Part shown: positions 33,097 through 44,092 of the stretch, one piece after another
Position numbering within the stretch: position 1 is the first letter of the stretch
Layout of the letters: every line of letters starts with the position of its first letter
Assembly: GCA_965277805.1 (NCBI GenBank)
Contig: OZ255842.1
Location: 1,824,001-1,888,000, forward strand
Direction: 5' to 3'
Origin: Candidatus Lustribacter sp.
GTDB lineage: Bacteria > Vulcanimicrobiota > Vulcanimicrobiia > Vulcanimicrobiales > Vulcanimicrobiaceae
DNA: 64,000 nt
Notes under the pieces: model-generated
Databases searched by the model: none
What the model was told of the DNA's origin: nothing
What the model saw: only the letters and a program-made list of their open reading frames with translations
Made by a program: the position numbers and the translations under genes

Positions 33097-33894
33097 TTAG
33101 CTGTTGTGGCCGACGGTCGCGATCGCCTGATTGGTGGCGTCGTCTTGGGTCTGGATACTCTTTTCGTTGGCATCGAACCAACGCTCGGCGTTGATGAGGT
33201 CGACGATCGACTTCACGACATCGCCGTTGCTCTTTTCTTCCGAGTACTGAAGCACGTTGGTGCGCGAGGCGGGCCGGAGACCGGCGTCTTGGCCGGCGAT
33301 GTAGCCGGTCGCGCCCTGCGGCTGCAGCGCGTTGACGTTGTTGAATTCGAACACGCCGATGTTGCCGCTCGTCACGCCGTCGACGTTGATCGCGCCGTCG
33401 GTGCCGACTTCGATCTTACCGAGCGCGGGCATCGGGATCGAATGACCGGCGGCATCGAGCACGGTCTTGCCGTCGACGGTCGCGAGCGTGCCGTCTGCGG
33501 CGCGCATGAACGAACCGTCGCGCGTGTACTGGATCTGGCCCGTGGCGGGATCTTGGACGGCGAAGAAGCCCGGCCCCGAAAGCGCGAACGAGAACGTGTT
33601 GCCGTTCATCGCGATCTGGCCTTGCTCGAAGTTGGTCGGCGTCGCGTAGACGTCCGAACCATTGCCGAGCGGCCCGATCGGAACTTGCGCGGAAACGCCC
33701 GGCAAACGGTTGAGCGGATTCTGACCGGGATCCGTTTGGAACCGGTAGAGCTGCTGCATGGGCTGCGACTCGATCTGCAGCAACGTGCGTTTGAAACCAT
33801 TGGTCGACGAGTTTGCGAGATTATTCGAAACGTTGTCGATCATGGCTTCCGCAACCATTGCGCCGGCCGCTGAAGTGTATAACCCGCGAATCAA
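33097..33894 (-). CDS. flgF: Rod protein FlgF (FlhO-like)
   Basis: TTG start with SD GGAGGGG; IRGLYTSAAG, NNLANSSTNGFK, YTRDGSF, EKSN. Confidence 0.88.
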   Translation of the reverse strand: MIRGLYTSAAGAMVAEAMIDNVSNNLANSSTNGFKRTLLQIESQPMQQLYRFQTDPGQNPLNRLPGVSAQVPIGPLGNGSDVYATPTNFEQGQIAMNGNTFSFALSGPGFFAVQDPATGQIQYTRDGSFMRAADGTLATVDGKTVLDAAGHSIPMPALGKIEVGTDGAINVDGVTSGNIGVFEFNNVNALQPQGATGYIAGQDAGLRPASRTNVLQYSEEKSNGDVVKSIVDLINAERWFDANEKSIQTQDDATNQAIATVGHNS

Positions 33895-34013
33895 AAGAAA
33901 AACCCCTCCGCACACCAGGTTGCCGCCGTTACCGGGCGACCACGAAACCGTCAATCAATCGGGTTCCGTCGCGGCCCCCACCGTGCGAGGGTAGTCCAGC
34001 CGCGCTATATGTA

Positions 34014-34040
34014 GCATCGGCATCTGGCCCGCCGACTTTA
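34014..34040 (-). promoter_or_regulatory. sigma28 promoter for flgF-G-A-H-I-J
   Basis: TAAA-N15-GCCGATGC. Confidence 0.85.
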
Positions 34041-34053
34041 GGGCCCTCTATAG

Positions 34054-34085
34054 CAAGAGCCCCCCGGCGGACCGGAGGGCTCTTG
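34054..34085 (-). terminator. Strong hairpin downstream of fliE (probable terminator, weak U-tract)
   Basis: CAAGAGCCCTCCGG-TCCG-CCGGGGGGCTCTTG on the minus strand. Confidence 0.7.
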
Positions 34086-34114
34086 AGAGGGTGGCCGCCC
34101 GGAGGCGAAGCGCC

Positions 34115-34459
34115 CTACACCTGAAGGCGGGAGATTTCCGAGTACGCGTCCAGCAGCTTGGTGCGGATCGACATCATGTATTGCATTGCGAGGTTGGCTT
34201 CCTCGACCGAGGTGACGACCTTCTGGATGTCGCCGGTGGCGCCGGTGGCCAGATCGCGCATGTTGTCGTCGGAGGTGTTCAGCTTGTCGTTGACGTCGCC
34301 GAGCATCTTCTGGAGCGTATTCTTGAAGGTGACGTTGGGGTCGGCAGCCGCACCCGGGATCGCCGAGACCTCGGGGCTCTCGTCGGACTTCTTCGTCCCG
34401 CCGATGTCGGGGACGAAGCTCGCCGGAGTGATGCTGCTGAGGGCGCCTGCGTAGTCCAC
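34115..34459 (-). CDS. fliE: Hook-basal body protein FliE
   Basis: F...L..VN, LATG...DI, IRTKLLDAYSEISRLQV. Confidence 0.93.
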   Translation of the reverse strand: MDYAGALSSITPASFVPDIGGTKKSDESPEVSAIPGAAADPNVTFKNTLQKMLGDVNDKLNTSDDNMRDLATGATGDIQKVVTSVEEANLAMQYMMSIRTKLLDAYSEISRLQV

Positions 34460-34461
34460 GA

Positions 34462-34923
34462 TCAGCTCTTCAACAGGTTCAGGGCGGCGCTGCCCATGCT
34501 GCGCGACTCGGAGATCGCCGTGACGTTGGCTTGGTACGCGCGGGAGGCGGCGATCATGTCGACCATCTCTTTGACCACGTCGATGTTGGGCATGTGAACG
34601 TAGCCGTTGGCGTCGGCGTCGGGATGGGTCGGGTCGTAGACCATGCGGTCGGGGCCCGGATCGCTCATGATGCCGACGGCCGAGACGCCGTCGCGGGACT
34701 TGCCCGGGTCGGTCGCGTCGTCGTTATCGAGCGGATCCATATCCGGATCGTTCGTCTGTTCTTGCTTCTGCGCGAAGATGACCAGCTGGCGCTTGAAGGC
34801 ACCGCCTTCGGGCGTACGCGTCGTGTTCACGTTGGCGAGGTTGTTCGCGATGACGTCCATCGCGAGGCGTTCGGCGGAGAGACCGGACGCGCTGACCTCG
34901 ATCGAGCTGTACATACCGGGCAT
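34462..34923 (-). CDS. flgC: Rod protein FlgC
   Basis: SASGLSAER, NLANVNTTRT, YDPTHPDAD..GYV.MPN, SRAYQAN. Confidence 0.97.
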   Translation of the reverse strand: MPGMYSSIEVSASGLSAERLAMDVIANNLANVNTTRTPEGGAFKRQLVIFAQKQEQTNDPDMDPLDNDDATDPGKSRDGVSAVGIMSDPGPDRMVYDPTHPDADANGYVHMPNIDVVKEMVDMIAASRAYQANVTAISESRSMGSAALNLLKS

Positions 34924-34926
34924 GTG

Positions 34927-35382
34927 TTAGGCCTTCTCCTCAATCGCTTCGCGAATACGCGAGTACTGTTGCGAAAGCAACGCGTGCATGGTCTGAGAAT
35001 ACGAGGAATTTATTGACAATTTCGCCATTTCCTGATCGAGGTCGACGTTCGAACCGTCGACGCGCATCTGCTGCGTGTCGTCGATGCTGGTCGTCACCTT
35101 GAACGGCTGCGGCTCGAAATCAGGTCCGGCCGGTATCTGCTTGTTGTCGTCCGTCACGAGCGCGAGCTCGGAGGAATCGTCATAGCGCGGCAGCTCGGCC
35201 GCGAGCGCTTCGCGGAAGTCGACGTCCGACCGTTTGAAGCCCGGCGTGTTGATGTTCGCGATGTTGTTCGCGATCGCGTCATGGGTCTGGCGCGCACCCG
35301 TACCGGCATCTTTCAGCATGGTAATGGTTTGGCCGAACATCGAAGACGCGCCGACTGGGGCGTCCATAGACATGTCGCTCAT
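34927..35382 (-). CDS. flgB: Rod protein FlgB
   Basis: IANNIANINTPGFKRSDVDF, RVDGSNVDLDQEM. Confidence 0.95.
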   Translation of the reverse strand: MSDMSMDAPVGASSMFGQTITMLKDAGTGARQTHDAIANNIANINTPGFKRSDVDFREALAAELPRYDDSSELALVTDDNKQIPAGPDFEPQPFKVTTSIDDTQQMRVDGSNVDLDQEMAKLSINSSYSQTMHALLSQQYSRIREAIEEKA

Positions 35383-35390
35383 CTATTGGT

Positions 35391-35417
35391 TCTTCGGCGT
35401 CCGCGGCTCGAATCTTA
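35391..35417 (-). promoter_or_regulatory. sigma28 promoter for flgB-flgC-fliE (probably leaderless)
   Basis: TAAG-N15-GCCGAAGA, then 8 nt to ATG 35382. Confidence 0.75.
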
Positions 35418-35443
35418 GCGCGTACCACTCCGTTGAGGGAGCT

Positions 35444-37213
35444 TTACACACTGAATTGAGCGGCGTGGAGCCCGGCGTAGGAGCCGCCGGAGGCCAGCAA
35501 AGCGTCGTGGGTCCCGGTCTCGCGGACCTCGCCGCTCTCGATATAGAGGATCTTGGTGGCGCGGCGGATCGTCGAGAGGCGGTGCGCGATGATCAGCGTC
35601 GTCCGGCCCGGGAGTATACGATCGAGCGCTTCCTCGATCAGGTGCTCGGAATGACTGTCCAGGGCGCTGGTGGCCTCGTCGAGGATTAGGATGCGGGGGT
35701 CGCGCAGGATCGCGCGGGCGATCGCGACCCGCTGGCGCTGGCCGCCCGAGAGCCGCACCCCGCGCTCGCCGACCCGGGTGTTGTAGCCGTCGGGCAGCGA
35801 CGAGACGAACTCGGCAACGTTGGCCTCGCGGGCCGCGGCCAGCACCTCGTCGTCGGTTGCCTCGAGGCGGCCGTAGCGGATGTTGTCGGCGATCGTGCCG
35901 TTGAAGAGCTGGGTCTCTTGCGGCACGAGGGCGATCGCCCCGCGCAGGTCGTCGAGGCGCACGCCGGCGATGTCGACCCCGTCGAGCGTGATGCGGCCGC
36001 CCTGGGGAGCATAGAAGCGCGGCACCAAGTTGGCGATGGTCGACTTGCCGGCGCCCGACGGCCCGACGAGCGCCACGATCTCGCCGTGCAGCATCTCGGC
36101 CGTGAAGCCGTCGAGCACCGGCGGGCCGTCGGGGCTATAGGCGAAGCGCACGTTCTCGAAGCGCACGTCGCCGACGATCGCCGGCATACGCACCGCGCCC
36201 GGCGGATCGTCGGCTTCGATCGGCAGATCGAGGACCTCGAACACGCGTGAGGCGCCGACCAGCGCGCGCGAGAAATCACCTAGGAAGATCGAGAACCGGT
36301 TCATCGGGTTGATCGTCAGCGCCATCGCGCCGAAGAACGCGATCGCTTGGGCCGGCGCGATGCGGCCCGCGCCGATTTCGCTCACCACCATCACGACGAT
36401 GACGATGATCGCGAGCGAGACGATCGTCGCGATCACCGGCGACTGCGTTTGGTTGAGCTGCGTGACCTTCATCTGCGCGCCGAAGTAGGCGTCGTTGGCG
36501 CTCGCGAAGCGGTCGCGCTCGAAGTTCTCGCGGCGGAACGCCTTGACCACGCGCTGATTTCCCAGCACTTCGGCGAGGTTCGAGGAGACGTCGGCGATGC
36601 GTTCCTGCGCCATGCGCGTGCTGACGGTGACCAGTTTGTTAAACCGGCCGATGACGATCGAGACGACCGGCGTGCAGGCCAGCAGCACGATCGCAAGTAC
36701 CCAGTCGAGCGAGACCATCCAGGCGACCGCGGCGACGAACGTGACCGTGACCTGCACCATCTGCGGCAGCGAGATGCTCACCGCGTCGATCATCAGCCCA
36801 AGGTCGATCGAAAAGCGCGACATGAATTCGCCCGGGCGCCAGCGATCGTAATCCGCCAGCGACATGCGATTGACGTGATCGAACATGCGCGCGCGCAGCG
36901 AGGCGATCATGCGCTGACCGGCCCACGCGGTCATGTAGCTCTGGCCGTAGCCGGCCAAGTTTCCGATGACCTGCGAGATGAAGATCACGCCGCAGACGAT
37001 CCACAGCGCGGTCCAATCGATGTATGTCGGCAGCGTGACGCCGTGAACGACCGGCTGGTAGTGGATGACCCGCGTCATCAGCAAGCCCGGCAGCTGCAAG
37101 AGCACCGTCGGCGCGATGCCGGCGATCACACCGAGAAGCATCGCCACCCCGACGCGGCCGAGATACGGCCGCGCCTCCAAGTAGATGCGATGCAGGACCA
37201 CCGAGCGTTCCAC
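35444..37213 (-). CDS. MsbA-like ABC exporter (fused permease/ATPase)
   Basis: TM domain plus GPSGAGKST, LSGGQRQR, LILDEATS; GTG 37213 preferred as start. Confidence 0.92.
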   Translation of the reverse strand: MERSVVLHRIYLEARPYLGRVGVAMLLGVIAGIAPTVLLQLPGLLMTRVIHYQPVVHGVTLPTYIDWTALWIVCGVIFISQVIGNLAGYGQSYMTAWAGQRMIASLRARMFDHVNRMSLADYDRWRPGEFMSRFSIDLGLMIDAVSISLPQMVQVTVTFVAAVAWMVSLDWVLAIVLLACTPVVSIVIGRFNKLVTVSTRMAQERIADVSSNLAEVLGNQRVVKAFRRENFERDRFASANDAYFGAQMKVTQLNQTQSPVIATIVSLAIIVIVVMVVSEIGAGRIAPAQAIAFFGAMALTINPMNRFSIFLGDFSRALVGASRVFEVLDLPIEADDPPGAVRMPAIVGDVRFENVRFAYSPDGPPVLDGFTAEMLHGEIVALVGPSGAGKSTIANLVPRFYAPQGGRITLDGVDIAGVRLDDLRGAIALVPQETQLFNGTIADNIRYGRLEATDDEVLAAAREANVAEFVSSLPDGYNTRVGERGVRLSGGQRQRVAIARAILRDPRILILDEATSALDSHSEHLIEEALDRILPGRTTLIIAHRLSTIRRATKILYIESGEVRETGTHDALLASGGSYAGLHAAQFSV

Positions 37214-37296
37214 GCCTCGCGCTTTGCGCGCCAAGCGGCGAAACCTTCGCTGCGGTCGCCCGGTACATGCGACGAAACCCGATGGGAGGCCAAAGC

Positions 37297-37908
37297 GTGG
37301 ACTGTTATTTTCATCATGCGGTGCCGTCCGTGGCCCGCTGCGCGGACTGCGGTAAGTCGATTTGCGCGACGTGCCGCGACGAGCAGGGTGCCTGCCCGAG
37401 CTGCCGTCTCGCCGCGCGAATCGACCAAGCCGCCGCGCAGCGGCAAACCCTGGCAGGCGGCGTCGGGCCGTCGTCCAAGGCGAGCGCCGGCCACGACGAT
37501 GCGAACGAGTGGCGCCGGCAGTGGCAGTCCAGCGCGCCCACACCGCCGCCGCAGCGCTCGACGGCCGTGGCCAACGTGCGGCCCGAGTCGCGCGCGCTCG
37601 TTGCGCTCGGCTACCCGTTCTGGCCGCTCGCGCTAATCGCGCTCTTCGACCGGTCGGGCTCGAACTTCGTCCGCCGCAACGCGTGGCAGGCGCTCGGGTT
37701 CAACGCCGGCATGTACGGGCTCGGCTGGCTGTTTTCATCGATCGCGATGATCCCGTTGATCGGCATGTCGGCCTGGCCGCTGCTGCCGTTCATCGTGCCG
37801 GTCACGATCGTCGCGAGCGTGGTCTACGCCATCAAGGTGTGGCATGGTGACGACGTGCACGTGCCGTTTGTCTCGGAGATCGTCGACCAGAAGCTCTCGC
37901 CGAGCTAG
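37297..37908 (+). CDS. B-box-like zinc finger plus DUF4870-type membrane domain protein
   Basis: CYFH..C..CGKSIC..C..CPSC; ALGY..FVRRNAWQAL and TM helices; SD GGAGG. Confidence 0.75.
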   Translation: MDCYFHHAVPSVARCADCGKSICATCRDEQGACPSCRLAARIDQAAAQRQTLAGGVGPSSKASAGHDDANEWRRQWQSSAPTPPPQRSTAVANVRPESRALVALGYPFWPLALIALFDRSGSNFVRRNAWQALGFNAGMYGLGWLFSSIAMIPLIGMSAWPLLPFIVPVTIVASVVYAIKVWHGDDVHVPFVSEIVDQKLSPS

Positions 37909-39368
37909 GCGACGACCTCGGCGCGATAGCGCGCGAGGAAGGCCCGCGCCGCTTCCTCGTGATCGAGGATCGGCGCGGGATATTGCCGCGCACCGAAGAG
38001 CGGCAGCGCGAGTTGCGGCTGCCGTTCCCCGCGCTCGAAGATCGTGGCATCGGGCAAACCCGCCAGCTCGGGGATCCAGCGCCGCACGTAACCGGCCGCC
38101 GGATCGAAGCGGTGCGCCTGTTTGACCGGGTTGTAGATGCGCGGATAAGCGGCGAGATCGGCACCAACTCCCGCGACCCACTGCCAGTTGGCCGTCGCCA
38201 GCGCCGGATCGTCTTCGATCAGGAAGCGGTCCCACTCATCGCGGCCGACGCGCCAATCGACGCCCAGATCGAAGCACAGGAACGACGCGCTGATCGCGCG
38301 CACGCGCGGATGCATCCGTCCCGTTGCGCGCAGTTCGCGCATCCCCGCGTCGACGAGCGGAAAACCGGTCGTGCCGCTGCGCCACGCATCGAGTTGCGGA
38401 TGCGTGCGCGCGAAGGCGAAGCGGCGCATCTTCTCTTGCAGCGGCGCATCGTCGAGCGCGTCGTTGTACCACCCGAGCTGCAGAAAGAAATCGCGTTGCG
38501 CGAGCGCGCGCAGCCACAGGCGCACCGCGGTCGTTTCTTCGCTGAGCAGAAACGGGTCGGTGGCGCGAGCGCAGGCTCCGCGCACCGCGCTGCGCGCCGA
38601 GATCAGGCCGAACGACAATTCGGCCGAGAGCTCCGATGTTGCGCCGGCGTCGGGTACGTTGCGCGCGATGCCGTAGCCGAGGATCGGGCCGTTGAGGAAC
38701 GCCGCGAGCTTCTCGGCGGCGGCGGCCGGCGAGACCCCGCCGGCATCGTCATCGCGTCCGCCGAATTCGGCCGCCACCGGCAATGCCTCGCTCGCCACCT
38801 CGACCCGCGAGAAATGGACCGGCGGCGGGGCGTCGACCGGAATGAGCGTTCGCCAGCGCTCGAAGTACGGCACGAACGCGCGCCAGCCGTCGCCGCTGCG
38901 GTGCGCGAGCGCGATGTCCTCGGGCGGCACGACCGGTGCATCGTGCACGGCGAGGACGCGAATCCCCGACTCCTCGAGCGCGGCCTGCACGTCGCGGTCA
39001 GCGCGGATCTCCTTGGCGTCGTAGCGGACGCTCCAGGCCACCGTTTCGGCACCGATCCCGCGGGCGAGCGAACGCAGCGTCGCGGCCGTCCCGCCCCGGC
39101 GCACGATCAGCCGGCCGCCGCGCGCCGCGATGGCCGCATCGAGCGCGGCAACCGCGGCGCAGTAGAAGGCCGCGCGCCGGGGTGATGCCCGCAGGCGGGC
39201 GGAGCGCACCGGATCGAGGACGAGCACGGGCACGACCTCGCCGTAGCGCGCGGCTTCGGCGAGCCCGAGGTGATCCTCAACGCGCAAATCGCGCGTGAAC
39301 GCGAAGAGCGTCTTCAGCGCGCGAACCGGCGGTCGATCATAAAGCCGCCGTTCTTCGCTTCGCCTCAA
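37905..39368 (-). CDS. Photolyase/cryptochrome family protein with atypical active site
   Basis: RDLRVEDH, TSELS..L.FG.IS, W..GTTGFPLVDAGMREL, WQWVAG.GAD, RIYNP..Q..RFDP..YVRRWIPEL; start uncertain. Confidence 0.9.
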   Translation of the reverse strand: MRRSEERRLYDRPPVRALKTLFAFTRDLRVEDHLGLAEAARYGEVVPVLVLDPVRSARLRASPRRAAFYCAAVAALDAAIAARGGRLIVRRGGTAATLRSLARGIGAETVAWSVRYDAKEIRADRDVQAALEESGIRVLAVHDAPVVPPEDIALAHRSGDGWRAFVPYFERWRTLIPVDAPPPVHFSRVEVASEALPVAAEFGGRDDDAGGVSPAAAAEKLAAFLNGPILGYGIARNVPDAGATSELSAELSFGLISARSAVRGACARATDPFLLSEETTAVRLWLRALAQRDFFLQLGWYNDALDDAPLQEKMRRFAFARTHPQLDAWRSGTTGFPLVDAGMRELRATGRMHPRVRAISASFLCFDLGVDWRVGRDEWDRFLIEDDPALATANWQWVAGVGADLAAYPRIYNPVKQAHRFDPAAGYVRRWIPELAGLPDATIFERGERQPQLALPLFGARQYPAPILDHEEAARAFLARYRAEVVA

Positions 39369-39454
39369 AGCTTCCTTTGCTAGGCGGGACGCCCCGGCTC
39401 ACAATCTCCGCACGGTAAGAGGAGAACCGTAAAATTCTTGTTCAATTCTCTCGC

Positions 39455-39946
39455 GTGCCTCACATTGCTCTGCGCGCGTGCACGACGCGCGACGTGACGC
39501 GGCTCGTGAACGACGGTGTGCTCACGGGCGCGCTCCCCGGTGGGGAGAGCTGGCCCAGCCGCGCCGCCCAGTGGCTGGAAGAAATGAAGGAAGGCCGCCG
39601 GCTCGTCATGATCGCCGAATTCGACGGCAAGACAGTGGGCATGGGCCAACTGATCTTCAAGTTCGCAAACGGCTACCAAGATCCGGAGGCCGCCAACGGC
39701 GCGGAGATCGCAATGATCGATTCGATCCGCATGCGCCCCGATGCGCCGGCAAATCTCTCCACGCACATCATCTCCGAACTCGAAAAGTACGCGAAGAAAA
39801 CGAAGCGCATCAAAATCCTCACGTTCCTCGTCCCGATGGACAACAACCGCGCGCTCAACCAAGTGAAGAGCTGGGGCTTCGAAGAATTCCGCATCATGCC
39901 CGAAGGCGCGAAGTTGCTCGCGTTCTTCCGCAAACGCATCGCGTGA
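39455..39946 (+). CDS. GNAT-fold protein with degenerate acetyl-CoA motif A
   Basis: IAEFDGKTVG, L.V..DN.RA....WGF; codon usage looks like a real gene. Confidence 0.6.
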   Translation: MPHIALRACTTRDVTRLVNDGVLTGALPGGESWPSRAAQWLEEMKEGRRLVMIAEFDGKTVGMGQLIFKFANGYQDPEAANGAEIAMIDSIRMRPDAPANLSTHIISELEKYAKKTKRIKILTFLVPMDNNRALNQVKSWGFEEFRIMPEGAKLLAFFRKRIA

Positions 39947-40083
39947 GGATATCGAGCTGTTTGCGAAACGTGTCGGAGATCGAGAGCTCCGTCGTGCGGC
40001 CGCCCATGACGGATGCGAGGACGATGCGCCCGCCGAAACGCACGGCGTCGACTGCGAGCGTTACCATCGCCGGACCGCCGGCG

Positions 40084-40887
40084 TTATCGAGCGAGCTTTT
40101 CAAACTCCACGTTGTCCGGTGCGGCCACGACGTCGATCGTATCGACGGTGAAATCACCCTGCGGCGTGATCTCGAAATAGTTCACGGCCTCGTGCGACAC
40201 CGTTTGCTGCAGCGACCGGATGGCATCGGTTCGCACGCGCGGCGTGTTCATGCGCTCGATCCACGACGCAAACTCCAGATGCAGGCGGCGCATGACGGTG
40301 CGTTCGATCCGGAAGCCCGCCTGCGCGAGCAATTGTTCCCACTCGCGCGGCGAGTAGTCGCGCACGTGCGAGGGATCCCGGAACACCTCGATCGCCTGCA
40401 AGAACGTATCGAGCACCGGGCGTGCCGGCGCGGCAACGTCGATGAACACCGCGCGACCCGAATCGCGCAGCACGCGCCGCGCTTCGGCGAGGCCTTGCGC
40501 AACGTCGTCCCAATGATGCGCGCTGTACCGCGTCAGCACGAGATCGAACGACGCATCGTCGAACGGCAGCGACGTCACGGAGCCGGCGACGGTTGTAACA
40601 TTGCCGAGCCCGCGCTCCTTCGCAACCGAGGCGACGGTCGCTAACATTTCGGTCGAAAGATCGTAGGCCACGACGCCGGCAACATGCGGAGCAACCGAAA
40701 AGCTGACGTGCCCGCCCCCGCAGCCGAGATCGAGTACGCGCACGGGGCCGGCCGCCGCAGCCATCGTGGCGAGCTGCTGCAAATCTTCGCCTTGCGAATG
40801 CACGGTGCTCGCAACGTACTGCGTGCTGCGGCTACCGAATTGCGCGACGATCAGCGCGTCTTGCGTGCCGGCTTCGTTTTGATCCAC
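40084..40887 (-). CDS. Class I SAM-dependent methyltransferase (YafE/YcgJ-like)
   Basis: VLDLGCGGGH, DLSTEML, LPFDDASFD, RYSAHHW, RDPSHVRDY. Confidence 0.9.
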   Translation of the reverse strand: MDQNEAGTQDALIVAQFGSRSTQYVASTVHSQGEDLQQLATMAAAAGPVRVLDLGCGGGHVSFSVAPHVAGVVAYDLSTEMLATVASVAKERGLGNVTTVAGSVTSLPFDDASFDLVLTRYSAHHWDDVAQGLAEARRVLRDSGRAVFIDVAAPARPVLDTFLQAIEVFRDPSHVRDYSPREWEQLLAQAGFRIERTVMRRLHLEFASWIERMNTPRVRTDAIRSLQQTVSHEAVNYFEITPQGDFTVDTIDVVAAPDNVEFEKLAR

Positions 40888-40915
40888 GCGATCCGATTCT
40901 GCGCCTACCCCCCGT

Positions 40916-40938
40916 GTCATCCCGAGCTTGTCGAGGGA
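40916..40938 (+). repeat. REP-like palindromic element, copy 1
   Basis: GTCATCCCGAGCTTGTCGAGGGA; matches the reverse complement at 54702-54724 (20/23). Confidence 0.7.
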
Positions 40939-41018
40939 CAGCCTCTCACCGTAAAGTGGGCGGCATCACGCAACAAAGGGCGGCTTTGGGTACGTTCCTC
41001 CGGTAGAGGTAAACGGCC

Positions 41019-41231
41019 ATGAACATCTTCGATACGGCACAATGGCGCGAATTCGAGAGCGAACAATGGCATCAAGCAGTGCGCAACCGCGGCCTAGAAC
41101 TGCGCTCCCTCGACGTGGATGAACGCGGCCTCGTCTTCGACGCCATCACGACCGACCTCGAACGCCGCAAACGCGCGCGCGAGGCGGCCGAGACGCCGAC
41201 GATTCACCCGTCGCTGACCGACTGTCCTTAG
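41019..41231 (+). CDS. Small hypothetical protein (70 aa)
   Basis: SD-like AGAGGT upstream; fills the gap convergent with moaA. Confidence 0.55.
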   Translation: MNIFDTAQWREFESEQWHQAVRNRGLELRSLDVDERGLVFDAITTDLERRKRAREAAETPTIHPSLTDCP

Positions 41232-42244
41232 CCGCCGATTTCGCTTAGGGCGCGCATGGCGCTGGCGGTTTGGCCGATGTCGAGGTGGTGCCGTTCGGGT
41301 TTGACGTACATCGAGCCGCGCAGGATTGCGATAAGGGCTTCTTCGCCGGCGCGATCGCGGACCGGCGTGCGCAGATCGATGAAGTGATCGCCGAAGAGGC
41401 ACAGCTTCAGGCGGCCGTCTGCGGAGAGGCGCACGCGGTTGCACGTATCGCAGTAGTCATGCGAGAGCGGTGAGATTACGCCGACGCTGCCGGCCGCGCC
41501 GTCGAAGGCGTAGTAGCGCGCGGGGCCGTTGCCCTTCGGGCCCTCGACCGGCTGCAGGTCGCCGTTCGTCCGAATGCGCTCGAGGATCTCGGTCGCGCTG
41601 ATGTACTGGTTCTCATGGCCGTCCACGTTTTCGTGCACGGGCATCACCTCGATAAAGCGCACGGCAACGGCGCGATCGCGCGTCATCTCCGCGAAGGCTT
41701 GCACTTCATCGTCATTCTGACCGCGCATCACGACGCAGTTGAGCTTGATCGGACCGAGGCCTGCGGCGAAGGCCGCGTCGATGCCCGCAAGCACGCGCTG
41801 CAATCCCGGCCGGCGCGCGATCGCTTCGAAGCGATCCTCACGCAGCGTATCGAGGGAAATGTTCGCGCGCGTGAGGCCCGCGTCGACCAAGCCTTGCACT
41901 TGCTCCGCCAGCAGCAGGCCGTTGGTCGAGAGCGCGATGTCATCGATGCCGGGAATCGCGGACAGCATCGCGACGAGGCGCTTGAGGTCCTTGCGGATCA
42001 GCGGCTCGCCGCCGGTAAGGCGAATGCTGCGCACGCCGACCTTGGCCGCGGCGCGCACGATCTCGGCAATCTCCTCATAGGTGAGGATCTCGCGCTTGTC
42101 GATCCACGGCAAGCCCTCTTCGGGCATGCAGTAGACGCAGCGCAGATTGCAGCGATCCGTCACCGAGATGCGGAGATAGGTAATCGGCCGATGGAAGGCG
42201 TCGGCGAGCTGCGGCTCCGTCGGCCTCGCAATCAAATCGATCAT
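41228..42244 (-). CDS. moaA: GTP 3',8-cyclase MoaA
   Basis: YLRISVTDRCNLRCVYCMP, LTGGEP, CDTCNRVR..KLCL, C-terminal IGG. Confidence 0.97.
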   Translation of the reverse strand: MIDLIARPTEPQLADAFHRPITYLRISVTDRCNLRCVYCMPEEGLPWIDKREILTYEEIAEIVRAAAKVGVRSIRLTGGEPLIRKDLKRLVAMLSAIPGIDDIALSTNGLLLAEQVQGLVDAGLTRANISLDTLREDRFEAIARRPGLQRVLAGIDAAFAAGLGPIKLNCVVMRGQNDDEVQAFAEMTRDRAVAVRFIEVMPVHENVDGHENQYISATEILERIRTNGDLQPVEGPKGNGPARYYAFDGAAGSVGVISPLSHDYCDTCNRVRLSADGRLKLCLFGDHFIDLRTPVRDRAGEEALIAILRGSMYVKPERHHLDIGQTASAMRALSEIGG

Positions 42245-42317
42245 TTAGCCAGCGACCTTAGACTTGAGGGCGGCTCGGCCCTCGGGCCGAACGCAACGGA
42301 CTCGCGGAACTCGAGTC

Positions 42318-42953
42318 CTAGTCCGTCGCGAAGACGCCTTGGTCGATCGGCACGTTCAACTTGTAGTTGGAGAACGAAGAGGCCACGTCGGCATGATACG
42401 ACGGCAGATCGACCTTGCCGGTCTGCGATTTGATCACGTAGTTGCCGTTCAACACGGCGTAGGTCTGCTGAAACGAGATGGTCCCTCCATCTTTATAGAT
42501 GTAGGCCATCGAGGTGACCGTTGCGGTCCGGTCGTCCACCGAAACATCGACATGGTCGACCCGGCCGTTGACCTTACGCACCAGCCGGAACTTGGCCGTC
42601 GTCCCATCGTCGGCAACCGGGGTCACGTCGTAGACCGCAGGCCACTCGGACGGGGGCTCCAGCTGCGGGTAAACCTTCTTGAATTGGCTGGCGAGCGCTG
42701 GGACGGTATCGAAGACGACCGCGTTCTTGTCCGGCTGCTCGAAGTAGGCTTTGCCGTCGAGCGAGGGGCTGATGAACGGGAAGCCGTGCGTCGTTACGTC
42801 GACGTGCAGGTCGGCTTGATATGACTTCAGGGCCGCATTGACGCGCTGCATCCGGGCATAGACGGCGTTTCCGTCCGCGCCCGGGGCGTCGGCAGCAATA
42901 GAACCGGCGATTAGGGCGGCGGCGAGGGTCAGGCGGAAAAACACGGCAATCAT
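42318..42953 (-). CDS. Secreted LolA-like-fold protein
   Basis: Signal peptide, SYQA, GKAYFEQPDK, C-terminal FSNYKLNVPIDQGVF. Confidence 0.55.
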   Translation of the reverse strand: MIAVFFRLTLAAALIAGSIAADAPGADGNAVYARMQRVNAALKSYQADLHVDVTTHGFPFISPSLDGKAYFEQPDKNAVVFDTVPALASQFKKVYPQLEPPSEWPAVYDVTPVADDGTTAKFRLVRKVNGRVDHVDVSVDDRTATVTSMAYIYKDGGTISFQQTYAVLNGNYVIKSQTGKVDLPSYHADVASSFSNYKLNVPIDQGVFATD

Positions 42954-42958
42954 CGCGA

Positions 42959-44092
42959 CTATCCTACCCGAGGCGACTGAGAATGGCATAGCACGGCGGC
43001 TTGGATTTCATCCAGCGCCAACGCGTCTGTCTCGGTCTCCAGGCGACCGCGCAGGGCGGCCAAGGCGCGCGGCGACCCGATGCGTCCCAGCGCCCAGGCG
43101 GCGTGGCCGCGGACCAGCGGATGCGGGTCCCCGGCGAGCGCTTCTTCGAGCACCGGCACATCGGCGCGGTCGAGCAGGTTGCCCATCGCCACTGCCGCGT
43201 TGCGCCGCAGCACCGCGCTGCCCCGCCAGCCGATCGCCGTGCGCGCGTAGCGGCGCTTGAACTCGCCGCTCTTCAACCGCAACAACGCGGCGAGCGACGG
43301 GGCACGCGTTTCGGCATCGAGCGGCACGAAGGCACCGGCCGTGCGCGGCGCGCGGCTCGTCGGCGGACACGCCTCCTGGCAGAGATCGCACCCCCACACC
43401 CAGGTCCCGATCAGCGGACGCAACTCGCGCGGGATCGGCCCGGAGCGCTGGGTGAGATCGGAGATACAGCGCGTCGCGTCGATCGTGTAATCGCCGCGCA
43501 GCGCGCCGGTCGGACATGCCGTCACGCAGCGCGCACACGCGCCGCAGCTCTTCTTCAGCGGCGCGTCGGGCGCAAGGTCAAGCGACGTCACCACTTCGCC
43601 GAGGAACACGTACGAGCCGAGGCCGGGAGCGATCAGGTTCGTGTGTTTGCCGATCCAGCCGATGCCGGCGCGTTCGGCGAACGCGCGCTCGGCGACGGGT
43701 GCGGTGTCGCACGCAATCGCGGTCGTCGCGCCCAGGCCTTCCAGCTCGCGCGCGAGCGCGGCCAGCAGTTCGCGCATCCGCCGGTGGTAGTCGTCCGACC
43801 AGGCGTAATTCGAGACGCGTCCGCGGCCGGCGCGCTGCGCTTCGCCCGGCGTCGCGTAGGCGACCGCAACGCACACGACGCTGCGCGCCGCGGCCAAGAG
43901 CGTTCGCGGGTCGGCCGCTTTCGCCGCGTAGCGTTCGTCGTAGGGCCACGTCTGCAGATCGCCGCGTTCGAACGATGCGTTCATCCGCTCGTGCGTCCAG
44001 GCTTGCGGATCGGCCGGCGCGATGCGCACGGCGTCGGCGCCACACTTGCGAGCTGCGGCCAGCACGCCGGCACGCAACCCGACGGCGGTCAT
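42959..44092 (-). CDS. queG: Epoxyqueuosine reductase QueG
   Basis: YAWSDDYH, AGIGWIGKH, CGACARCVTACPTGA, GCDLCQEACP, HEAT-like C-terminus. Confidence 0.95.
   Translation of the reverse strand: MTAVGLRAGVLAAARKCGADAVRIAPADPQAWTHERMNASFERGDLQTWPYDERYAAKAADPRTLLAAARSVVCVAVAYATPGEAQRAGRGRVSNYAWSDDYHRRMRELLAALARELEGLGATTAIACDTAPVAERAFAERAGIGWIGKHTNLIAPGLGSYVFLGEVVTSLDLAPDAPLKKSCGACARCVTACPTGALRGDYTIDATRCISDLTQRSGPIPRELRPLIGTWVWGCDLCQEACPPTSRAPRTAGAFVPLDAETRAPSLAALLRLKSGEFKRRYARTAIGWRGSAVLRRNAAVAMGNLLDRADVPVLEEALAGDPHPLVRGHAAWALGRIGSPRALAALRGRLETETDALALDEIQAAVLCHSQSPRVG

Follow-up and report, generated by a model that had tools for sequence, protein, structure and literature searches.

The window considered here is a stretch of 64,000 nucleotides from Candidatus Lustribacter sp. 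(GenBank assembly GCA_965277805.1, contig OZ255842.1, positions 1,824,001 to 1,888,000 of the forward strand), and the gene in question occupies positions 37905-39368 of its minus strand. The 487-residue product (P0001) belongs to the photolyase/cryptochrome superfamily, in the two-domain form, and represents a clade that is confined to one class (three families) of Eremiobacterota (Vulcanimicrobiota), a phylum of soil and peat, and is essentially missing elsewhere in that phylum. To judge from the residues that have been replaced throughout the clade, the protein is probably not a canonical cyclobutane pyrimidine dimer (CPD) photolyase. It may well be a cryptochrome-like blue-light or redox sensor that binds flavin adenine dinucleotide (FAD), and not an enzyme of CPD repair.

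The protein, its altered pockets and their conservation

The coding sequence (37905..39368, minus strand, stop codon included) is open throughout its 487 codons and begins with TTG. A Shine-Dalgarno-like AAGGAAG, read from the sequence, stands directly upstream at 39371..39377 (minus strand), and near this start there is no alternative in-frame ATG, GTG or TTG. The GC content at the three codon positions is 0.76/0.53/0.84, as in the surrounding real genes. A scan for promoters at the gene gave no promoter-like site, and one for terminators gave a single terminator-like site, inside the coding sequence and under the shuffle expectation. A search for sequencing runs turned up four of contig type, all from one study, and none of RNA. 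Both photolyase domains are present in P0001, namely PF00875 (N-terminal alpha/beta, 4.7e-32) and PF03441 (FAD-binding helical, 2e-60), and there is no C-terminal tail. An AlphaFold (AF2) model built from 94 homologues has a mean local confidence (pLDDT) of 92.6 and a global score (pTM) of 0.91, and is poor at residues 1-17 only; it supersedes an earlier, mediocre model from 10 sequences (pLDDT 73.4). Foldseek matches this model best to 1owl/1qnf (TM-score 0.86-0.90), then to 4u63 and 1dnp. The reading frame, the two domains and the structural comparison bear out the earlier note on this DNA, which had described an uninterrupted frame with intact fold motifs. By sequence, the closest solved structures are 4u63 (A. 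tumefaciens PhrA, 208 bits), 1owl (Synechococcus, 207 bits) and 1dnp (E. coli, 186 bits); AtCRY1 scores 176 bits and the Drosophila cryptochrome (CRY) structures 74-76 bits. P0001 falls under every curated NCBIfam cut-off for photolyases and cryptochromes (TIGR03556, 249 against 884.6; NF007955, 233 against 506), the plant-CRY and DASH models included, and the ESM Atlas places it in generic photolyase/cryptochrome clusters, nothing more specific. Where JGI, NCBI and nr name these proteins, they do so as 'deoxyribodipyrimidine photo-lyase'.

The residue changes were read against E. coli K-12 Phr (from NC_000913), to which P0001 aligns by BLASTP with 30% identity and 191 bits, free of gaps at the motifs. 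A passage of PMC8476157 assigns E274, W277, N341, M345 and W384 of the E. coli protein to the substrate, R344, D372, A377, N378 and G381 to FAD, and W306, W359 and W382 to the tryptophan triad. In P0001 the lesion-pocket helix WLRALAQRDF (residues 285-294, codons at 38487..38516, minus strand) carries E274->A288 and W277->Q291, with R278 kept as R292. The segment GRMHPRVRA (residues 350-358, codons at 38295..38321, minus strand) carries W338->R351, N341->P354 and M345->A358, with R344 kept as R357. The flavin-facing segment EDDPALATANWQWVAGVGAD (residues 385-404, codons at 38157..38216, minus strand) carries D372->E385, A377->L390, N378->A391 and G381->N394, with W382 and W384 kept. The five substrate sites read A, Q, P, A and W, so that four of five are replaced, and four of the five listed FAD sites also differ, R344 being the one retained. 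Asn378 beside a small or polar residue at 377, the pairing looked for in a CPD photolyase, has given way to Ala391 and Leu390. W359 is kept, the distal tryptophan of the triad, W306, is Phe (F319, codon at 38412..38414, minus strand), and a clade-specific Trp, W379 (codon at 38232..38234, minus strand), occupies the site of a Phe in canonical photolyases (E. coli F366). The substitutions E274A, W277Q, N341P, M345A and N378A, which the earlier note had proposed, are all real in this alignment; so too are the Phe at W306, there described as apparent, and the retention of W359, W382 and W384.

Relatives were surveyed as the best 80 of 233 species-level loci. At the lesion sites, Pro341 and a small residue at 274 (Ala, Ser or Gly) are found in 80/80, Trp277 in 0/80, and a small residue at 345 (Ala, Ser, Pro or Thr) in 79/80. 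At the flavin sites, residue 378 is Ala in 71 and Ser in 9, and Leu or Ile at 377, Asn381 and Glu372 occur in all 80. Much else has been kept: Y222 in 79, T234 in 80, S235 in 76, R342 in 67, and R278, R344, W359, W382 and W384 in 80 each, together with an invariant DNA-loop arginine, R410 (PRIYNP loop). The distal triad position is Phe in 77/80, and the new Trp at the F366 position is present in 80/80. A separate set, made up of P0001 and its 120 closest database relatives (66-97% identity), gives the same picture in P0001 numbering, with Pro at 354 and Ala at 391 in 120/121 each, Ala (112) or Ser (9) at 358, Ala (64) or Ser (56) at 288, and Gln at 291 in 101. As an observation apart, the Arg at 351 (38319-38321) is found in 6/80 relatives only, 74 having the Trp of E. 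coli W338; this change, beside the flavin pocket, is specific to the genus or a near group.

Against canonical sequences, the clade has 12 positions fixed differently, among them one in the FLCFDLG segment (K->F) and those of the GADLAAYPRIYNP loop, which has been rebuilt. In a HMMER search of 1.84 billion representatives, bit scores fall sharply, from 598 through 546, 516 and 387 to 307, and run on as a continuum from 262 downwards. When the 137 full-length cluster representatives are compared, the signature is carried by P0122, P0123, P0124, P0126, P0128, P0134 and P0138 only, with P0130 as a variant; the remainder have Asn341 and Asn378, save P0269 (Gly341), P0212 (Asp378) and P0147, which aligns badly. 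The clade signature is far beyond chance. A natural variant may also exist elsewhere: the haloarchaeal photolyase of L103 (Natribaculum longum plasmid record CP095395.1) has the canonical lesion pocket (Q274, W277, N341, M345, W384) and aligns His at 377 and Ala at 378 (DHDTAHAAGGWQW), which could reflect a one-residue register shift or another replacement of N378.

Pairwise Nei-Gojobori ratios of nonsynonymous to synonymous substitution (dN/dS) are 0.03-0.25 in 13/13 pairs. The earlier note had proposed that orthologues be examined for conservation and dN/dS, and had held that random decay among close relatives would point to a pseudogene. Such decay is not seen, since the signature is fixed in 80/80 relatives, the dN/dS ratios are low and the locus is conserved. 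The loss of catalytic residues is alone in favour of a decaying pseudogene or an annotation artefact, and the idea is refuted by the selection data, the open frames in 79/80 loci, a third-position GC content of 0.84, the ribosome-binding site and the fixed nature of the substitutions; we regard it as negligible, and hold a functional gene to be near-certain. L042, alone among the 80 relatives, has a stop codon within the extended frame; this may be a sequencing error or a real loss.

The phylum was sampled with 401 genomes, a match being counted at E <= 1e-20 and genomes flagged unpublished being included in the tallies. A match to the clade gene was obtained in 329/401, with 290/296, 4/5 and 29/30 in the three families of the class (here f1, f2 and f3); in the other 18 families, 5/69 genomes matched, all weakly (1e-32 to 1e-61). 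Eleven f1 genomes have a weak best match only (E weaker than 1e-70), which is probably the canonical photolyase, and this leaves about 279/296 at clade level. As to the surveyed loci, 69 of the 80 carry Eremiobacterota- or Vulcanimicrobiota-type names and 7 bear the labels of other phyla. Those seven have neighbours like those of the window (a DUF4870 gene, and ABC and MoaA genes where the contig allows), which suggests binning or labelling errors. A MAG contig labelled 'Candidatus Eremiobacteraeota' is 99% identical to the window.

A second, canonical phrB, for which the earlier note had advised a search, is indeed present in the window's genome (L002:1474-2910, in genome coordinates G000:C1:4213429-4214862; 478 residues), with WLGELAWRDF, GWMHNRLRM and DADLAANNGGWQW. 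The same genome was searched for PF04244 (FeS-BCP) and none was found. The canonical type (E <= 1e-100) occurs in 102/401 genomes, comprising 96/296 in f1, 0/5 in f2 and 3/30 in f3, and in about two-thirds of the sampled relatives the clade gene is the sole class I/III-type member of the family found.

The f3 members (39-44% identical to P0001; four genomes examined), together with P0130, form a sister subclade with the following residues: Gln or Arg at 274, no Trp277, Gln or Arg at 341, Ala344, Ile or Val at 345, Leu or Gln at 377, and Asn381. Residue 378 is Cys in 4/4 genomes (L092-L095, from G041, G071, G103 and G116) and Ser in P0130. It was also seen that Ala takes the place of the FAD-contact Arg344 in this subclade, and Ala or Glu that of Asp372. 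The sister-subclade genes lie at the same locus, with the convergent DUF4870 gene and the ABC exporter, in 5/5 extra genomes (one from f2), and are on this account positional orthologues. Class-wide, the residue facing N5 of the flavin is Ala, Ser or Cys, never Asn.

Origin and relation to known families

Three free maximum-likelihood (ML) trees were built. The FastTree analysis had 139 rows, its representatives being limited to lengths of 420-570 residues and P0128, P0138 and P0147 being excluded; two IQ-TREE analyses (LG+C20 PMSF, quick) used 49 and 55 rows picked from the FastTree groups and named anchors. The clade is recovered in all three (support 99-100) and joined with P0130 (100). The stem branches are long (0.75 and 0.70 substitutions per site in the 49-row IQ-TREE), which fits a functional shift. 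All three trees place the clade inside the class I/III radiation, the backbone of which is short and its deep nodes weak. In the 49-row tree, it shares a group of 19 rows (SH-aLRT 95) with canonical proteins, among them P0255, itself matching 1owl and 4u63 about equally. A resemblance to class III photolyases had been suggested from the motif WQWVAG.GAD. This is unsupported, because the motif is also found in several lineages outside class III, and because the PhrA-type class III group (anchor P0160, 565 bits to 4u63; SH-aLRT 92-93) excludes the clade in all three trees. The best explanation is that the clade descends from class I/III-type CPD photolyases and has been vertically inherited.

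With those photolyases (1dnp, 1owl/1qnf, 4u63), which are its best matches in sequence and structure, P0001 shares the two-domain fold, the length, the residues that anchor FAD and, of the tryptophan triad, all but the distal member; it differs in the lesion-binding and FAD sites described above, in the distal Phe and in the long stems. Plant cryptochromes derive from class III-type photolyases through the loss of repair and the acquisition of Asp at site 378. The clade, in contrast, has Ala378, no CCT extension and an independent origin. The rebuilt flavin environment resembles that of the insect type I cryptochromes. According to passages of PMC9356274, photolyases of the CPD, DASH and 6-4 types all keep Asn378, as do type II animal CRYs, plant CRYs having Asp at this site and type I animal CRYs Cys; a hydrophobic residue at 377 weakens hydroquinone binding, and changing Val415 of Drosophila CRY (dCRY), which occupies site 377, to a polar residue allows reduction past the anionic semiquinone; finally, Asn replaces Gly381 in DASH, 6-4 and type I animal CRYs. 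The clade resembles dCRY in having a hydrophobic residue at 377 (Leu in place of Val415), no Asn378, and Asn381; at site 378 itself, dCRY and the sister subclade have Cys, and P0001 has Ala. It is not a close relative of dCRY, however, and it lacks both the C-terminal tail and a fourth Trp. The likeness, at three positions, is convergent.

Bacterial photolyase homologues without repair residues, presumed to function in signalling, have already been published under the name NewCRY (PMC7736829). In the relevant passages of that paper, the group accounts for 8% of the superfamily, is known from both bacteria and haloarchaea, is without E274 or N341 and includes VcCry2, and the cluster holding VcCry2 is defined by network edges of E < 1e-70; a 'DASH-like, prokaryote-specific' group is listed in a passage of PMC8476157. 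For comparison we used seven proteins from Vibrio, Salinivibrio, Pseudoalteromonas, Nostoc, Natronomonas, Halalkalicoccus and Halobaculum replicons; their NewCRY label is itself an assignment, made by residue pattern, by host range and, for the Vibrio family members, by elimination (PMC5241685). All seven have G[WYF]xNFRMRA, Arg274, Trp277, His or Asn278, Ile or Leu377 and Gln381, and none has Trp384. Like NewCRY, the clade consists of bacterial homologues once annotated as CPD photolyases, and it too lacks E274 and N341, but it has MHPRVRA where NewCRY has NFRMRA, and it has lost the Trp277 that NewCRY keeps. Conversely, it retains Arg278 and Trp384, both lost in NewCRY; site 378 is His, Asp or Asn in NewCRY and Ala, Ser or Cys in the clade. 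The two also differ in range, which is Proteobacteria, Cyanobacteria and haloarchaea for NewCRY and one class of one phylum for the clade.

It could nevertheless be argued that the clade is a divergent branch of the NewCRY (VcCry2-type, 'DASH-like') family and not an independent offshoot of class I/III. The absence of E274 and N341, by which that family is defined, is consistent with this, as are Ala345 and the aliphatic residue at 377, the only two positions at which the clade overlaps the NewCRY-like set. Approximately unbiased (AU) tests did not reject trees in which the two were united (log-likelihood differences of 2.4 and 2.3; p-AU 0.445 and 0.45). Both groups are on long branches. Against it, the clade has none of the motif, Arg274, Trp277, His/Asn278 and Gln381 common to 7/7 NewCRY-like proteins, nor their lack of Trp384, and none of the three free ML trees joins the two groups. 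P0001 scores 103 bits with the Vibrio Cry2-like protein and 108-120 with the haloarchaeal ones, compared with 191 for E. coli Phr and 190-262 for canonical representatives; 103-120 bits is far under an edge of E < 1e-70, bearing in mind that the comparison set is an inferred one. The NewCRY pattern was also absent among the best 150 matches in the 1.84 billion representatives. We consider membership in NewCRY improbable. An origin independent of it is favoured by similarity and by signature, although the trees do not prove it. One of the records gathered for this comparison deserves mention in its own right: on the Vibrio sp. THAF191c chromid (L090), a DASH-type cryptochrome gene directly follows a gene that the end of the locus cuts short and whose product exceeds 476 residues; by eye this product resembles an FeS-BCP/(6-4) photolyase, which would make a two-gene photolyase cluster.

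Proposed function and its alternatives

The earlier note had held that the protein is probably not a normal repair enzyme and could be a light or redox sensor. The former statement stands, given the clade-wide changes, the purifying selection and the canonical paralogue; the latter is the best reading of the data, at the strength given at the outset. The proposed mechanism can be set out as follows. FAD would be bound, as the conserved residues lead one to expect, and CPD repair would have been lost with the replacement of four of the five side chains that hold the cyclobutane dimer. The environment of the flavin N5 has been rebuilt with Leu377, Ala378 (Cys in the sister subclade) and Asn381, as in the insect type I cryptochromes. 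Blue light might then drive electron transfer by way of W395 and W372, with W379 possibly as the terminus in place of the lost W306; the F366 position, where W379 is found, we take to be near the tryptophan chain. With no proton donor or acceptor at N5 and with Leu377, the flavin would halt at the semiquinone as a signalling state, and FAD may thus cycle between the oxidized form and an (anionic) semiquinone, and not rest as the catalytic hydroquinone. The former lesion pocket, now widened, could accommodate a partner or ligand, and output could be by way of this enlarged pocket or of the rebuilt loop 405-412.

Several observations weigh against a sensor. Most cryptochromes signal through a C-terminal tail, and P0001 has none. 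The replacement of the distal triad Trp by Phe could hamper photoreduction, W384, R342 (in 67/80) and the DNA-loop Arg R410 have been retained, and the neighbouring genes give no functional clue. That about two-thirds of the relatives have no other class I/III-type member also fits a repair role that is still essential. Finally, according to a passage of PMC9356274, single N378D or N378C changes leave E. coli photolyase unconverted to a cryptochrome, from which it follows that residue identity is a weak predictor of photochemistry.

Part of this evidence would be accommodated if the protein were still a light-driven DNA repair enzyme, its pocket rebuilt for another lesion or DNA context or for an atypical mode of binding CPDs. 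The clade gene is near-universal in the class while the canonical photolyase is found in only 102/401 genomes, PF04244 was not found in the window's genome, and W382, W359, W384, R278, R344 and the arginine of the PRIYNP loop are all kept. Nor is the altered triad decisive, in that SPL/NewPHL proteins conserve only the latter two triad tryptophans and yet characterized members repair CPDs, as stated in passages of PMC8476157 and PMC7736829. But E274, W277, N341 and M345 are replaced in every member (80 loci), and the clade has a hydrophobic residue at 377 and no Asn378, whereas what it has lost there is described in part of PMC9356274 as needed for, or favouring, the catalytic hydroquinone. 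Repair by the CPD route or another is, on balance, unlikely. The specific case of a 6-4 photolyase meets a further difficulty: the His-His pair typical of those enzymes is missing, 341 being Pro and 345 Ala in P0001. A role independent of light, as a flavin-dependent redox protein or as a scaffold whose enlarged pocket holds a small molecule or a protein, is somewhat less probable still. It would be in keeping with the want of a signalling tail, the lost distal Trp, the smaller residues at the pocket sites (Ala, Pro, Gln, Ala) and the many members from soil and peat genomes (to go by record titles). It leaves hard to explain, without photochemistry, why the flavin-proximal W382 and W359 are invariant and why a new invariant Trp has appeared at the F366 position.

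The sensor proposal can be extended to a bacterial cryptochrome with an independently evolved insect-type pocket, which forms an anionic flavin radical in blue light and served as an ancestral receptor of the class Eremiobacteria. This fuller version is put forward tentatively and is rather doubtful as a whole.

Genomic setting and significance

The gene is flanked on both sides by genes on the opposite strand and for this reason is probably monocistronic. The convergent neighbour, a gene for a DUF4870 membrane protein (37267..37908, plus strand), overlaps the stop of the photolyase-like coding sequence by 4 bases at its end and bounds the transcription unit; it adjoins the gene class-wide, in 75/80 loci and 5/5 extra loci. 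Its product has weak N-terminal matches of B-box or zinc-finger-like type (E 0.02-0.05). The divergent neighbour is a weak GNAT-like open reading frame (ORF) (39455..39946, plus strand; GNAT match 0.0012). The frame on the minus strand at 39380-39862 (160 residues) was considered as a co-transcribed upstream gene and rejected as a spurious shadow frame, its third-position GC content being 0.61 against 0.82 for the GNAT-like ORF; its tblastn 'conservation' in 44/80 loci reflects the opposite strand.

Proximity to flgB had led to the suggestion of a link with motility. Between the two genes lie the DUF4870 gene and an ATP-binding cassette (ABC) exporter, and the order moaA ... gene - DUF4870 - ABC exporter - flgB recurs among the 80 loci, where neighbours within 5 kb include DUF4870 in 75, ABC in 68, MoaA in 68, QueG in 55 and flgB in 38. 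The synteny, however, reaches to moaA and queG, genes of unrelated function, and many relatives have inserted genes at the locus (the immediate neighbours in L017 are cytochrome c and an M24 aminopeptidase). We therefore read the shared order as slow genome rearrangement and not as a functional tie to the flagellum, and the opposite-strand flanks and the two intervening genes likewise lend the motility link no support. The extended order queG - orf223 - moaA - ... - photolyase-like - DUF4870 - ABC exporter - flgB - flgC (window 33097-44092; loci L004-L083) is of interest in itself, as it persists among relatives of just 55-60% protein identity, which is unusually stable for unrelated functions.

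The transition from photolyase to cryptochrome is a textbook example of how an enzyme turns into a sensor, and it has been well studied in plants and animals. NewCRY is, to our knowledge, the only bacterial group described without repair residues, and we know of its characterization only in terms of FAD binding by one member. What is new here is the present clade, its restriction to one class, and the Ala/Ser/Cys series at the N5 site. A search of one literature library returned no paper pairing 'photolyase' with 'Eremiobacterota' or 'cryptochrome' with 'Eremiobacter', 'NewCRY' in a single relevant paper, and for N378A-type mutants unrelated proteins only; the review PMC11362059 has nothing on bacterial N5 variants. 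The clade would be a further case of enzyme turned sensor, maybe an independent one, with its origin placed at the base of one bacterial class, and the occurrence of Ala, Ser and Cys at N5 in positional orthologues provides a natural series on how residues tune flavin photochemistry. Because the clade gene is the sole class I/III-type member found in about two-thirds of the sampled genomes, the photoreactivation capacity inferred for Eremiobacterota is probably overstated. Blue-light phototaxis with an unidentified photoreceptor is reported, in a passage of PMC9758169, for Vulcanimicrobium alpinum. Should the fuller version of the sensor proposal hold, and should that strain carry the gene, the protein could be the receptor for behaviours such as this one; it may, more generally, be a candidate photoreceptor for a phylum with phototrophs and a phototactic isolate.

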